Source of the DNA: Escherichia coli | GTDB taxonomy: Bacteria > Pseudomonadota > Gammaproteobacteria > Enterobacterales > Enterobacteriaceae | NCBI RefSeq assembly: GCF_002854065.1 | Contig: NZ_CP024147.1 | Length of the DNA: 64,000 bases | Direction: 5' to 3' (one strand) | Shown here: piece after piece, positions 17,963 through 45,869 of the stretch | How the letters are laid out: every line of letters begins with the position of its first letter | How positions within the stretch are numbered: the stretch's first letter is position 1 | Made by a program: the position numbers and the translations under genes | Notes under the pieces: model-generated | What the model saw: the letters and a program-made list of their open reading frames with translations, nothing else | Databases searched by the model: none | Told to the model about the DNA's origin: nothing

Positions 17963-18841
17963 ATGAAATATTCCTTAGGGCCAGTGCTGTGGTACTGGCC
18001 AAAAGAGACGCTGGAAGATTTTTATCAGCAGGCCGCCACCAGCAGCGCCGACGTGATTTATCTTGGCGAAGCGGTATGCAGCAAGCGCCGGGCAACCAAA
18101 GTTGGCGACTGGCTGGAGATGGCAAAATCGCTCGCCGGAAGTGGTAAGCAGATAGTGCTCTCCACGCTGGCGCTGGTGCAGGCATCATCTGAACTGGGCG
18201 AACTGAAACGCTATGTTGAGAACGGTGAGTTTCTGATTGAAGCCAGCGATCTCGGCGTGGTGAATATGTGCGCTGAACGCAAACTGCCGTTCGTCGCCGG
18301 ACACGCGCTGAACTGCTATAACGCGGTGACGCTGAAAATATTGCTCAAACAGGGCATGATGCGCTGGTGTATGCCAGTGGAGCTTTCCCGCGACTGGCTG
18401 GTGAATCTGCTTAATCAGTGCGATGAGCTGGGCATTCGTAACCAGTTTGAAGTGGAAGTCCTGAGCTACGGTCATCTGCCGCTGGCCTACTCCGCCCGCT
18501 GCTTTACCGCGCGTTCGGAAGACCGCCCGAAAGATGAGTGTGAAACCTGCTGCATTAAGTATCCGAACGGGCGCAACGTGCTGTCGCAGGAAAACCAACA
18601 AGTGTTTGTACTCAATGGCATTCAGACCATGAGCGGCTACGTTTACAACCTCGGTAACGAGCTGGCATCCATGCAGGGCCTGGTTGATGTGGTCCGCCTG
18701 TCACCGCAGGGTACTGACACTTTCGCGATGCTCGACGCCTTCCGCGCTAATGAAAATGGCGCTGCACCACTGCCGTTGACGGCGAACAGCGACTGTAACG
18801 GCTACTGGCGGCGGCTGGCAGGACTGGAGCTGCAAGCCTAA
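17963..18841 (+). CDS. ubiV: U32-family protein UbiV (YhbV)
   Basis: ATG at 17963 (MKYSLGPVLWYW...), 292 aa. Confidence 0.9.
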   Translation: MKYSLGPVLWYWPKETLEDFYQQAATSSADVIYLGEAVCSKRRATKVGDWLEMAKSLAGSGKQIVLSTLALVQASSELGELKRYVENGEFLIEASDLGVVNMCAERKLPFVAGHALNCYNAVTLKILLKQGMMRWCMPVELSRDWLVNLLNQCDELGIRNQFEVEVLSYGHLPLAYSARCFTARSEDRPKDECETCCIKYPNGRNVLSQENQQVFVLNGIQTMSGYVYNLGNELASMQGLVDVVRLSPQGTDTFAMLDAFRANENGAAPLPLTANSDCNGYWRRLAGLELQA

Positions 18842-18847
18842 GTAAAT

Positions 18848-18918
18848 AGCTCACTTTGTTAACAACTTTAACTACTCTTTAATGCAGTATTAAAGATTAA
18901 TCGGTAACAAAGTGAGCT
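18848..18918. repeat. 71-bp nested inverted repeat (16-bp outer arms with 1 mismatch, 7-bp inner hairpin) in ubiV-yhbW intergenic region
   Basis: agctcactttgttaac (18848-18863) pairs with ggtaacaaagtgagct (18903-18918); inner ctttaat-gcagt-attaaag (18877-18895); ends 3 nt before the yhbW ATG. Confidence 0.6.
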
Positions 18919-18921
18919 GTT

Positions 18922-19929
18922 ATGACTGATAAAACCATTGCGTTTTCGCTACTCGATCTGGCCCCCATTCCCGAAGGTTCTTCAGCGCGAGAAGCATTCT
19001 CCCACTCTCTCGATCTCGCCCGTCTGGCTGAAAAGCGCGGCTATCATCGCTACTGGCTGGCAGAACACCACAATATGACTGGCATTGCCAGTGCTGCCAC
19101 GTCGGTATTGATTGGCTATCTGGCGGCGAATACCACCACGCTGCATCTGGGGTCTGGCGGCGTGATGTTGCCTAACCACTCACCGTTGGTCATTGCAGAA
19201 CAGTTCGGCACGCTCAATACACTCTATCCGGGGCGAATCGATTTGGGGCTGGGTCGTGCTCCGGGTAGTGACCAGCGAACCATGATGGCGCTACGTCGTC
19301 ATATGAGCGGCGATATTGATAATTTCCCCCGCGATGTCGCGGAGCTGGTGGACTGGTTTGACGCCCGCGATCCTAATCCGCATGTGCGCCCGGTACCAGG
19401 CTATGGCGAGAAAATACCGGTGTGGTTGTTAGGCTCCAGCCTTTACAGCGCGCAACTGGCGGCGCAGCTTGGTCTGCCGTTTGCGTTTGCCTCACACTTC
19501 GCGCCGGATATGTTGTTCCAGGCGCTGCATCTTTATCGCAGCAACTTCAAACCGTCGGCACGACTGGAAAAACCATACGCAATGGTGTGCATCAATATTA
19601 TCGCTGCCGACAGCAACCGCGACGCTGAATTTCTGTTTACCTCAATGCAGCAAGCCTTTGTGAAGCTGCGCCGTGGCGAAACCGGGCAACTGCCGCCGCC
19701 GATTCAAAATATGGATCAGTTCTGGTCACCGTCTGAGCAGTATGGCGTGCAACAGGCGCTGAGTATGTCGCTGGTGGGCGATAAAGCGAAAGTGCGTCAT
19801 GGTTTGCAGTCGATCCTGCGCGAAACCGACGCCGATGAGATTATGGTTAACGGGCAGATTTTCGACCACCAGGCGCGCCTGCATTCGTTTGAGCTGGCGA
19901 TGGATGTTAAGGAAGAGTTGTTGGGATAG
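18922..19929 (+). CDS. yhbW: luciferase-like (LLM class) flavin-dependent monooxygenase YhbW
   Basis: ORF 335 aa matching YhbW. Confidence 0.9.
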
Positions 19930-21443: not shown

Positions 21444-23333
21444 TTACGCATCACCACCGAAACGACGACGACCGGTAGAGTCATCACGACGCGGAGCGCG
21501 GCCTTCACGACGTTCGCCGCTAAAACGACGACCATCACCACGACCACCTTCACGGCGTTCACCGCTGAAGTTACGACCACCTTCACGACGCTCGCCACTG
21601 AAACCACGACCACCGCCACGACGCTCTCCGCCAGTATGCGGCTGTGCATCGCCCAGTAATTGCATATTCATCGGCTTGTTCAGAATGCGAGTACGTGTAA
21701 AGTGTTGCAGCACTTCACCCGGCATACCTTTCGGCAGTTCGATGGTGGAGTGAGAAGCAAACAGCTTAATGTTACCGATGTAACGGCTGCTGATGTCGCC
21801 TTCGTTAGCAATCGCACCAACGATATGACGAACTTCAACACCATCATCGCGGCCCACTTCAATACGGTACAACTGCATATCGCCAACATCACGACGTTCA
21901 CGACGCGGACGATCTTCACGGTCGCCACGCGGACCACGGTCGTTACGATCGCGCGGACCACGGTCATCACGGTCACGGAATTCACGTTTCGGACGCATCG
22001 GCGCATCTGGCGGTACGATCAGAGTACGTTCACCCTGTGCCATTTTCAGCAGTGCCGCAGCCAGAGTTTCGAGATCCAGCTCTTCACCTTCTGCAGTCGG
22101 CTGAATTTTGCTCAGCAGTGCGCGGTATTGATCCAGATCGCTGCTTTCCAGCTGCTGCTGTACTTTAGCGGCGAATTTTTCCAGACGGCGTTTGCCCAGC
22201 AGTTCTGCGTTCGGCAGTTCTACTTCCGGAATAGTCAGCTTCATAGTACGTTCAATGTTGCGCAGCAGACGACGCTCGCGGTTCTCAACGAACAACAGCG
22301 CGCGGCCAGCACGACCCGCACGACCGGTACGACCGATACGGTGAACGTAAGACTCAGAATCCATCGGGATATCGTAGTTAACCACCAGGCTGATACGCTC
22401 AACGTCCAGGCCACGGGCTGCAACGTCGGTCGCAATCAGGATGTCCAGACGACCATCTTTCAGGCGTTCCAGTGTCTGCTCACGCAGCGCCTGGTTCATG
22501 TCACCGTTCAGCGCGGCGCTGTTGTAGCCGTTACGCTCAAGAGCTTCAGCCACTTCCAGAGTCGCATTTTTGGTACGAACGAAGATAATCGCCGCATCAA
22601 AATCTTCCGCTTCCAGGAAACGTACCAGTGCTTCGTTTTTACGCATACCCCAGACAGTCCAGTAGCTCTGGCTGATGTCAGGACGGGTAGTCACGCTGGA
22701 CTGAATGCGCACTTCCTGCGGCTCTTTCATAAAGCGGCGGGTAATGCGACGAATCGCTTCCGGCATGGTTGCAGAGAACAGAGCGGTCTGATGACCTTCC
22801 GGGATCTGCGCCATAATAGTTTCAACGTCTTCGATGAAGCCCATGCGCAGCATTTCGTCAGCTTCATCCAGAACCAGACCGCTCAGTTTAGAGAGGTCCA
22901 GAGTGCCACGTTTCAGGTGGTCCAGCAGACGGCCCGGAGTACCGACAACGATCTGCGGCCCCTGACGCAGGGCGCGTAATTGCACGTCATAACGCTGGCC
23001 GCCGTACAGGGCAACCACATTTACGCCGCGCATGTGTTTAGAGAAATCCGTCATTGCTTCAGCAACCTGTACCGCCAGTTCGCGGGTCGGTGCCAGCACC
23101 AGAATCTGTGGTGCTTTCAGCTCAGGATCAAGATTTTGCAGCAGAGGTAAAGAGAATGCTGCAGTTTTTCCGCTCCCCGTCTGGGCCATACCCAGAACGT
23201 CGCGGCCATTCAGCAGATGTGGAATACACTCTGCCTGAATTGGAGATGGTTTTTCGTAACCCAGATCGTTAAGGGCTTCAAGGATAGGAGCCTTCAGGCC
23301 CAGATCTGCAAAAGTGGTTTCGAATTCAGCCAT
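21444..23333 (-). CDS. deaD: ATP-dependent DEAD-box RNA helicase DeaD/CsdA
   Basis: ATG at 23333 ([13 protein letters not shown]...) gives 629 aa; DEAD-box motifs ([12 protein letters not shown]); Arg/Gly-rich repetitive C-terminal tail. Confidence 0.93.
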
Positions 23334-28250: not shown

Positions 28251-28651
28251 TAGTCCTCCTTGCTGTCGTCCGGGTTAACACGACGTTCTTCGTCATGTTT
28301 GACCACGCTGGTCACCAGGTTTGACATGCGCATCCCTTCAACCAGAGAGTTGTCGTAGAAGAAGGTCAGTTCCGGCACGATACGCAGGCGCATCGCTTTC
28401 CCCAGCAGGCTGCGGATGAAACCAGAAGCTTCTTGCAACGCTTTGATGCCCGCTTTAACCGCGTCTTCATCTTTGTCGTTGAGGAACGTCACATATACTT
28501 TGGCATACGCCAGGTCGCGAGACATTTCGACACCGGAAACGGTGGTCATCATGCCCAAGCGAGGATCTTTAATTTCACGCTGCAGGATGAGAGCGATCTC
28601 TTTTTGCATTTCCTGCGCTACGCGCTGCGGGCGACCAAATTCTTTCGCCAT
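28250..28651 (-). CDS. rbfA: ribosome-binding factor A
   Basis: ATG at 28651 ([11 protein letters not shown]...), 133 aa. Confidence 0.93.
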
Positions 28652-44435: not shown

Positions 44436-45869
44436 ATGCGATTTTCCAGATTTATCATCGGATTGACCAGCTGTATAGCGTTCAGTGTTCAGGCCGCGAA
44501 TGTTGATGAGTACGTTACTCAACTCCCCGCTGGTGCCAACCTTGCCCTGATGGTGCAAAAAGTCGGCGCGTCGGCCCCCGCTATTGATTACCACAGTCAG
44601 CAGATGGCGCTGCCCGCCAGTACCCAGAAAGTGATTACTGCGCTGGCGGCGTTGATTCAACTCGGCCCCGATTTTCGTTTCACCACGACGCTTGAAACCA
44701 AAGGCAATGTGGAAAACGGCGTACTTAAGGGTGACTTAGTGGCGCGATTTGGTGCCGATCCGACGTTAAAACGTCAGGATATTCGCAATATGGTCGCGAC
44801 TGTGAAAAAATCTGGCGTCAACCAAATCGATGGCAATGTGTTGATAGATACCTCCATTTTCGCCAGCCACGATAAAGCCCCCGGCTGGCCATGGAATGAC
44901 ATGACACAATGCTTTAGCGCTCCGCCTGCCGCTGCCATAGTTGACCGCAACTGTTTCTCCGTCTCGCTCTACAGTGCCCCAAAACCTGGTGATATGGCTT
45001 TTATACGCGTGGCATCTTATTACCCCGTTACGATGTTCAGCCAGGTACGCACCCTCCCCCGTGGTTCTGCCGAAGCGCAATACTGCGAACTGGATGTCGT
45101 ACCAGGCGACCTGAACCGCTTTACGCTGACGGGATGCCTGCCACAACGTTCTGAGCCGCTCCCGTTGGCTTTTGCCGTGCAGGATGGAGCCAGCTATGCC
45201 GGGGCAATTCTGAAAGATGAGTTAAAACAGGCAGGTATCACCTGGAGCGGAACACTGCTGCGCCAGACTCAGGTTAACGAACCTGGAACGATAGTTGCCA
45301 GTAAACAGTCGGCCCCGTTGCACGATCTGCTTAAGATTATGCTGAAAAAGTCGGACAACATGATCGCCGATACGGTTTTCCGCATGATAGGCCATGCGCG
45401 CTTCAATGTGCCTGGAACATGGCGGACCGGGTCGGACGCTGTGCGTCAGATCCTGCGCCAGCAAGCCGGTGTCGATATTGGAAACACCATTATTGCCGAT
45501 GGTTCAGGGCTTTCGCGGCATAACCTGATTGCCCCCGCCACCATGATGCAGGTGCTGCAATACATTGCCCAACACGACAATGAACTTAACTTTATCTCCA
45601 TGCTGCCGCTAGCGGGCTATGACGGCTCTTTGCAGTACCGTGCAGGTCTGCATCAGGCGGGCGTGGATGGAAAAGTCTCAGCGAAAACCGGTTCGTTGCA
45701 GGGGGTATATAACCTGGCGGGATTCATTACCACAGCGAGCGGGCAACGAATGGCGTTTGTACAATATCTTTCTGGCTATGCAGTAGAACCGGCGGATCAG
45801 CGTAATCGCCGTATTCCGTTAGTGCGTTTTGAAAGCCGTTTGTATAAAGATATTTATCAGAACAATTAG
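44436..45869 (+). CDS. dacB: D-alanyl-D-alanine carboxypeptidase/endopeptidase PBP4
   Basis: ORF 477 aa with signal peptide and STQK active-site motif. Confidence 0.95.
   Translation: MRFSRFIIGLTSCIAFSVQAANVDEYVTQLPAGANLALMVQKVGASAPAIDYHSQQMALPASTQKVITALAALIQLGPDFRFTTTLETKGNVENGVLKGDLVARFGADPTLKRQDIRNMVATVKKSGVNQIDGNVLIDTSIFASHDKAPGWPWNDMTQCFSAPPAAAIVDRNCFSVSLYSAPKPGDMAFIRVASYYPVTMFSQVRTLPRGSAEAQYCELDVVPGDLNRFTLTGCLPQRSEPLPLAFAVQDGASYAGAILKDELKQAGITWSGTLLRQTQVNEPGTIVASKQSAPLHDLLKIMLKKSDNMIADTVFRMIGHARFNVPGTWRTGSDAVRQILRQQAGVDIGNTIIADGSGLSRHNLIAPATMMQVLQYIAQHDNELNFISMLPLAGYDGSLQYRAGLHQAGVDGKVSAKTGSLQGVYNLAGFITTASGQRMAFVQYLSGYAVEPADQRNRRIPLVRFESRLYKDIYQNN

Follow-up and report, generated by a model that had tools for sequence, protein, structure and literature searches.

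Fold-back inhibition of transposase translation in IS10/Tn10, acting on transcripts that start outside the element, was reportedly described by Davis, Simons and Kleckner in 1985. In that system, the ribosome-binding site has its complement in a segment that precedes the gene's own transcription start, and only the externally started read-through RNA folds back and is silent. IS200 also has a cis inverted repeat that buries the Shine-Dalgarno (SD) sequence and blocks 30S binding; its stem-loop lies within the gene's own mRNA and represses constitutively, and a separate terminator guards against impinging transcription. REP/BIME and ERIC elements are intergenic palindromes found past a stop codon, and they lack a U-run. 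The class II marbox promoters of micF, fumC, lpxC P2, lpxL P1 and rfaY P1 have a forward asymmetric marbox over the -35 region together with a weak -10 element and are induced by MarA, SoxS, Rob or RamA. Class II marboxes stand in the forward orientation with their centre at -36 to -55 (PMC12052159). The spacer between ubiV and yhbW in Escherichia coli resembles each of these systems in part.

We analyzed a stretch of E. coli DNA of 64,000 nucleotides, referred to here as the window. It contains ubiV (yhbV; CDS 17963..18841, plus strand, with a TAA stop at 18839-18841) followed by yhbW (CDS 18922..19929, plus strand), which encodes a luciferase-like (LLM class) flavin monooxygenase; both genes are placed by the open reading frame list and by the MG1655 annotation (RefSeq for ubiV). 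The nested inverted repeat that a first-pass annotation had described in the spacer between them is real, and an inverted-repeat search extended its outer arms from 16 to 17 nt each. The left arm, AATAGCTCACTTTGTTA, occupies 18845-18861 and the right arm, TAACAAAGTGAGCTGTT, 18905-18921, both as read on the plus strand, with 43 nt between them. The arms are complementary at 16 of 17 positions, and in RNA all 17 positions pair, one of them as G.U. The dyad had been said to end 3 nt before the yhbW start codon, which is correct for the 16-nt arm (18918), but the 17-nt arm reaches 18921, the base directly 5' of the ATG (18922). On the other side the hairpin starts, in E. coli, 4 nt past the ubiV stop codon. 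A 13-nt core of the left arm, GCTCACTTTGTTA (18849-18861, plus strand), is identical in 35 of 38 aligned sequences. The right arm comprises the yhbW 5' UTR and ribosome-binding region and contains the invariant AAAGTGAGC, with GUGAG at 18912-18916. Between the arms is an inner palindrome, CTTTAAT-GCAGT-ATTAAAG (18877-18895, plus strand), with a perfect 7-bp core (ctttaat/attaaag), which the repeat search delimits as 18873-18883 / 18889-18899. The spacer is identical to positions 3303368-3303450 of E. coli K-12 MG1655, the window coordinate being the MG1655 coordinate minus 3284526.

With a 10-nt seed and arms no more than 120 nt apart, the dyad is the strongest separated inverted repeat in the window. 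The sole other repeat of this class (22777-22790 / 22875-22888; 14 nt, 93% complementary, arms 84 nt apart) is by its coordinates inside the deaD coding region. The dyad resembles REP/BIME and ERIC elements in being an intergenic palindrome past a stop codon without a U-run; unlike them it is AT-rich, orthologously conserved, present in single copy, and endowed with promoter and ribosome-site signals. Of 5426 complete E. coli genomes, 5423 have it, each at a single locus; the second match place in each genome most likely arises because a palindrome also matches its own opposite strand. A mobile or repeated element was therefore ruled out, in agreement with the earlier remark that the length of the dyad is unlike REP elements. 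A search of the dyad against Rfam 15 returned no family; the only match, to mir-1285, scored 27 bits against a gathering score of 56 and is hairpin noise. An intrinsic terminator would have a G+C-rich stem and a U-run, whereas the stem of the dyad is AT-rich and is followed by GUUAUGACU. The absence of a U-run had been noted before, and a simple scan found no terminator-like site in 18600-19100. A 28-bp imperfect palindrome centered on GTTAAC (18847-18874) was set aside because it is specific to E. coli and not conserved.

The ubiUV operon, of which ubiV is the last gene, is FNR-activated and is expressed under anaerobic or microaerobic conditions (PMC10470549). yhbW belongs to the mar/sox/rob/RamA regulon and is expressed at a higher level in a Klebsiella pneumoniae RamA overproducer; purified RamA shifts a K. 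pneumoniae yhbW promoter fragment and activates transcription from it 6.9-fold in vitro (PMC4310594). YhbW is the E. coli protein most induced by vanillin, 77-fold, alongside other proteins of the SoxS regulon, and E. coli yhbW is itself stated to be a member of that regulon (PMC6561319). yhbW is coexpressed with nfsA, nfsB and fpr. As a flavin monooxygenase by family, YhbW would be O2-dependent. The primers of the RamA experiment map to positions 1323-1583 of the K. pneumoniae locus L083, so that the template begins just 41 nt upstream of the Klebsiella left-arm core, and therefore the activator site and the promoter are within the spacer.

A simple scan of the ubiV-yhbW spacer found no consensus sigma-70 promoter. 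We built a MarA matrix from the 33 ChIP-seq sites of PMC5684230, which themselves score from 3.7 to 20 bits on it with a median of 12.8 bits, and we used the marbox consensus in the forms gcannwwntgnnaaa and AYnGCACnnWnnRYYAAAYn. A candidate 20-bp marbox lies in forward orientation on the plus strand at 18846-18865 and overlaps the -35 region. Its 15-mer core, GCTCACTTTGTTAAC (18849-18863), scores 8.4 bits, which is below the median of the ChIP-seq sites, and ranks 46 of about 128,000 window positions; it is the best marbox score in the spacer in both E. coli and K. pneumoniae. The core fits gcannwwntgnnaaa at 7 of the 10 specified positions, and its GC(T)C end is distal to yhbW. The marbox screen of PMC12052159 admitted at most two mismatches, and the yhbW marbox is missing from it because it has three. 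Neither yhbW nor yhbV has an entry in the supplements of the Salmonella MarA/SoxS/Rob/RamA ChIP-seq study or of the 2025 MarA screen. The only MarA ChIP-seq peak at the locus is 770 bp upstream, within ubiV. The MarA site labeled "(yhbV)" in PMC5684230 was considered as a possible counterpart of the dyad and rejected, since it maps to 18144-18158 inside ubiV. That sequence, GCACTATCTGCTTAC on the minus strand, has one mismatch to the published site and scores 14.6 bits on the MarA matrix; this marbox is intragenic and precedes yhbW by about 770 bp. The other strongest matches to the matrix in the window are at 45320-45334 (plus strand, 15.1 bits) and 28602-28616 (minus strand, 14.4 bits).

Conservation and fixed spacing point to a -10 hexamer, CAGTAT, at 18885-18890 on the plus strand, 19 bp past the 20-mer marbox. 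Across genera it takes the forms CAGTAT, CACTAT, CATTAT, CAATAT or AATACT. In the alignment of 38 sequences, positions 1, 2, 4, 5 and 6 of CAnTAT are invariant and position 3 can be any base, and this pattern appears to be that of a -10 element. The predicted start of yhbW transcription is 5-9 nt past the hexamer, at 18895-18899 on the plus strand (MG1655 3303421-3303425). The stress-induced yhbW mRNA would thus most likely begin near 18896, inside the dyad, without the left arm. No yhbW entry was found in the supplement text of three studies, namely Cappable-seq, a comparison of start sites between E. coli and Klebsiella, and ChIP-exo in Salmonella. If the putative hexamer is the -10 element and transcription starts at 18897, the centre of the marbox falls near -41, and both its orientation and its position are those of a class II promoter. 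The yhbW marbox is unlike the other class II marboxes in departing from the consensus at 3 of 10 specified positions and in not being a MarA ChIP-seq peak, and it is unique among them in being the reverse complement of the ribosome-binding region of its own gene. The inner palindrome, which on RNA is the inner hairpin, straddles the conserved -10-like hexamer, and the dyad would for the most part be the yhbW stress promoter.

The dyad is also predicted to fold stably as RNA. Folding of 18842-18930, which had been proposed as a check on the inverted repeat, gave for the plus strand a minimum free energy of -28.1 kcal/mol (z = -5.55), and none of 200 shuffled sequences folded as well; the minus-strand RNA of the same interval gave -27.2 kcal/mol (z = -6.2). 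The plus-strand hairpin remains both the minimum free energy structure and the centroid structure when it is placed in a 231-nt context. Its outer helix has 17 bp, and the inner hairpin extends the fold beyond an internal loop. The suggestion that the right arm covers the yhbW ribosome-binding region and that the fold could sequester it holds up by prediction: the interval from the SD to the AUG in E. coli is unpaired with a probability of 0.18 in RNA that includes the left arm and of 0.66 in RNA that lacks it. Across 20 species this accessibility spans 0.13-0.38 for the longer RNA and 0.29-0.77 for the shorter, and it is lower with the left arm in 18 of the 20. RNA that begins at 18896 gives -14.5 kcal/mol (z = +1.26) and is unstructured by prediction. 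yhbW's own stress mRNA would be unable to form the hairpin because its likely start at about 18896 excludes the left arm, and the inner palindrome with it.

The orthologous region was gathered from 27 genomes and from 71 metagenome contigs (32 distinct sequences), and it was aligned for 20 species and later for 38 sequences, the latter without gaps. The 13-nt core of the dyad is kept across the Enterobacteriaceae. Past the left-arm core there is a hypervariable stretch of about 11 nt and then a conserved block, TAATGCAnTATTAAAG, and the distance from the left-arm core to the -10 block (TAATGC) is 18 nt in every Enterobacteriaceae sequence examined. In the same sequences 4 nt always separate the ATG from the 13-nt core of the right arm, which ends at 18917. 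Among genera in which both arms are retained, the arm-to-arm distance varies from 43 to 161 nt. Promoter and ribosome site thus appear to be separate modules of the dyad, each internally rigid, and the linker between them is variable and happens to be short in E. coli. In E. coli itself, three variant spacers were sampled and their only polymorphisms are 18845 A>T, which breaks the outermost pair, and 18897 T>C, which falls at the predicted transcription start.

The dyad is best explained as a composite: two functional modules stand side by side, and their sequences happen to be complementary. The first (18846-18895) would act as DNA, a class II-type promoter with a MarA/SoxS/Rob site (RamA in other genera) over the -35 region and the weak hexamer CAGTAT 19 bp downstream of the marbox. 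The second (18905-18924) would act as RNA, a short yhbW 5' UTR with the Shine-Dalgarno region and the AUG. Oxidative, aromatic or drug stress would lead the activator to recruit RNA polymerase, transcription would start near 18896, and the resulting mRNA, lacking the left arm, would present an open ribosome site from which YhbW is made. Read-through from the FNR-driven ubiUV operon is conceivable because no terminator is predicted after ubiV. Such a presumed read-through RNA would carry the marbox sequence as an anti-Shine-Dalgarno segment, which would pair with the right arm over 13-17 bp with the -10 palindrome as an apical hairpin. The SD and the AUG would then be buried, and the read-through RNA would yield no O2-dependent enzyme. 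Our conjecture is that there is selection against making YhbW anaerobically. It is quite possible, if short of probable, that yhbW is subject to fold-back inhibition of this kind, in which translation of the gene depends on the promoter from which the RNA originates. The further proposal is more tentative and somewhat doubtful, namely that one segment carries two codes, a marbox as DNA and an anti-Shine-Dalgarno on ubiUV-derived RNA, and that yhbW is translated solely from its own promoter. We hold with similar reserve that this dual-code arrangement is conserved across the Enterobacteriaceae, even where a structured leader of 65-120 nt comes between the arms.

The nearest precedent for the proposed fold-back is IS10. 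In both, the ribosome-binding site has a complement that precedes the gene's own start, which for yhbW is the predicted one; at yhbW the upstream anti-SD complement makes 17 pairs in a predicted fold of -28.1 kcal/mol. In both, only RNA that starts outside would fold back and be silent, as we propose for yhbW. Unlike IS10, yhbW is a chromosomal stress gene that follows an anaerobic operon, and its anti-SD segment would double as an activator site. IS200 also buries an SD by a cis inverted repeat, but there the stem-loop is part of the gene's own mRNA, unlike the arrangement envisaged for yhbW.

The most serious alternative is that the complementarity has no function. The arms would be conserved independently, one as marbox and -35 region and the other as ribosome-binding site, and the match between them would be a frozen relic, perhaps left by an ancient inverted duplication. 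We give this a lower probability than fold-back, although a considerable one. The absence of conserved pairing, which the first-pass annotation had named as refuting, is not what the alignments show: 87-89% of pair cells are paired over the 20 and then the 38 sequences (89.3% in the 38), with 91% for the inner palindrome across the 38. However, pairing is preserved because both arms are conserved as sequence and not through covariation. The covariation check that the first-pass annotation had called for gave a score level with shuffled controls for both alignments (for 38 sequences, 0.099 against 0.093 +/- 0.006, with 73 of 500 shuffles as high), and this favors a relic, as does the fact that each arm has a sufficient function of its own. 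In about 70% of sequences the flanking positions 18847/18919 and 18848/18918 do not pair. The right arm also predates the left arm, since its AACAAAGTGAG is kept in Providencia, Brenneria and Erwinia, which are without the left arm; in these genera and in Serratia no other upstream complement to the ribosome site stood above shuffles. Against a relic, chance is very unlikely to place a perfect 13-nt complement within about 100 nt, and this complement is intact across genera in which unconstrained neighboring positions are randomized, the neighboring promoter spacer having fallen to 0.1-0.35 bits. The marbox model moreover leaves two features unexplained that pairing with the right arm explains. 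Marbox positions of low information (0.13-0.65 bits in MarA sites) are invariant in 18-20 of 20 species, and opposite them in the fold stands the invariant right-arm AAAGT. At marbox position 3 a T is conserved in place of the consensus A, and it pairs with the A of GAGC. One-sided changes in the 13-nt core nearly always give G.U on the plus strand, with about 29 such cells and 5 that are unpaired, a wobble-compatible bias that is largely due to the A-rich makeup of the variable right-arm positions. Mangrovibacter has one full compensation, GCTCGC/GCGAGC, and at the pair 18881/18891 A:T has become C:G in 5 sequences, one of them L113, whose close relatives L108 and L128 keep A:T. Taken as signs of selection for pairing, the invariant marbox positions, the G.U bias and the compensations are suggestive.

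Three other explanations fare less well. The hairpin could serve the ubiUV mRNA as a 3' stabilizer or, although it has no U-run, as a signal for pausing or termination; it could also be where RNase III splits ubiUV from yhbW, an RNase III substrate having been among the first-pass suggestions. A stable hairpin just past the ubiV stop, a helix that with the stacked inner stem nears two turns, and REP-like elements at the same place in other genera are consistent with this, but we consider it improbable: there is no U-run, the 3' arm keeps its place relative to the yhbW ATG and not to ubiV, and the position relative to the ubiV stop is not conserved, with insertions of 90-160 nt in Salmonella, C. 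koseri and Lelliottia. The same variable stop-to-left-arm distance led us to reject ribosome-mediated coupling to ubiV termination; it argues against melting of the stem by ribosomes and is compatible with fold-back. The palindromes could instead be protein sites, either inverted marboxes or, as the first-pass annotation had considered, half-sites of a dimer in the outer arms, or a repressor operator, TTTAAT-N5-ATTAAA, over the -10 element. The minus strand of the right arm does resemble the left-arm marbox, the inner palindrome is conserved beyond the -10 hexamer, and at one of its symmetric positions both sides have switched in several lineages. A dimeric site in the outer arms is contradicted by a spacing that ranges from 43 to 161 nt between genera, and the right arm scores 3.8 bits as a marbox and is at a variable distance downstream of the promoter. 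There is no linked regulator gene, a by-eye comparison with the TyrR, ArgR, NsrR and OxyR consensus sequences gave no convincing match, and independent A:T to C:G double switches suit base pairing better than repeated protein coevolution. We regard protein sites as having little probability. Least probable of all is a translational control hairpin inside yhbW's own mRNA, as initially suggested, which requires a start upstream of 18845, for which we found no support. The part of that suggestion concerning an occludable ribosome site stands, since the fold would occlude the SD and the AUG, but it overlooked the putative yhbW promoter inside the dyad. The RamA-activated template has no conserved promoter elements in the 41 nt that it includes before the left-arm core, it is inside the dyad that the only conserved promoter-like module with rigid spacing is found, and the 77-fold induction of YhbW fits poorly with a lock of -28 kcal/mol. 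A small RNA acting on the right arm was also considered, and the RyhB core would pair with it over 6 bp plus 3 bp.

If fold-back inhibition with a dual code is the correct reading, tightly packed genes without a terminator between them would be insulated at the level of translation and not of transcription. A transcription factor binding site would be constrained as RNA as well, with the consequence that "free" marbox positions never change, which bears on motif models for MarA, SoxS and Rob. yhbW RNA in anaerobic cells would not mean YhbW protein, and this would affect how regulons are read from operon maps. What would be new is a dual DNA and RNA role of one sequence that makes translation depend on the promoter of the transcript, a modest novelty. 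If the complementarity is only a relic, an ordinary promoter stands beside an ordinary ribosome site. The analysis also assigns to yhbW a putative promoter, a -10 hexamer and a likely start.

In Klebsiella, Kluyvera, Cronobacter, Atlantibacter and others the yhbW 5' UTR contains a conserved leader, 65-120 nt long, between the -10 block and the right arm. It has the form GCAGCTTTTCTGGC, a variable self-complementary tip, then GCCAGGCTGGAAGAAGACCTTCAATCTGATGAC..GCTGTA. It was found at 1412-1500 of the K. pneumoniae locus L082 and also in L086, L089, L092, L093, L001, L006 and L101-L173. The leader is absent from every E. coli genome and occurs once in a K. pneumoniae chromosome, and 71 of 73 exact metagenome matches to its 21-nt core are in the context of the marbox promoter and yhbW. 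An Rfam search of nine orthologous loci gave no match, including to the leader. A small open reading frame in the Klebsiella-type leader was considered and rejected: in Cronobacter it has no start codon, the frame is not kept, and the length of the tip varies by non-multiples of three. The leader could be an undescribed cis-regulatory RNA.

Between the ubiV stop and the left arm several genera carry what are presumably REP-like or ERIC-like repeats, judged against the consensus sequences of those elements. These insertions are at 1324-1425 of L081 (Salmonella), 1261-1425 of L088 (C. koseri), about 2240-2420 of L005 (E. albertii) and 1307-1425 of L091 (Lelliottia), and they are never inside the module formed by the left arm and the -10 element. 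A rearrangement of a different kind is found in E. coli TUM1226 (NZ_CP135719.1; L100 1501-1538, corresponding to window 18842-18921), where 42 bp have been deleted between the TAACAA direct repeats of the arms. With the -10 region lost in the deletion, yhbW is preceded by a tight hairpin, AGCTCACTTTGTTAACAACAAAGTGAGCT, and the TUM1226 allele is, as predicted from this structure, a natural form of the locus that is without a promoter and locked at the ribosome site.
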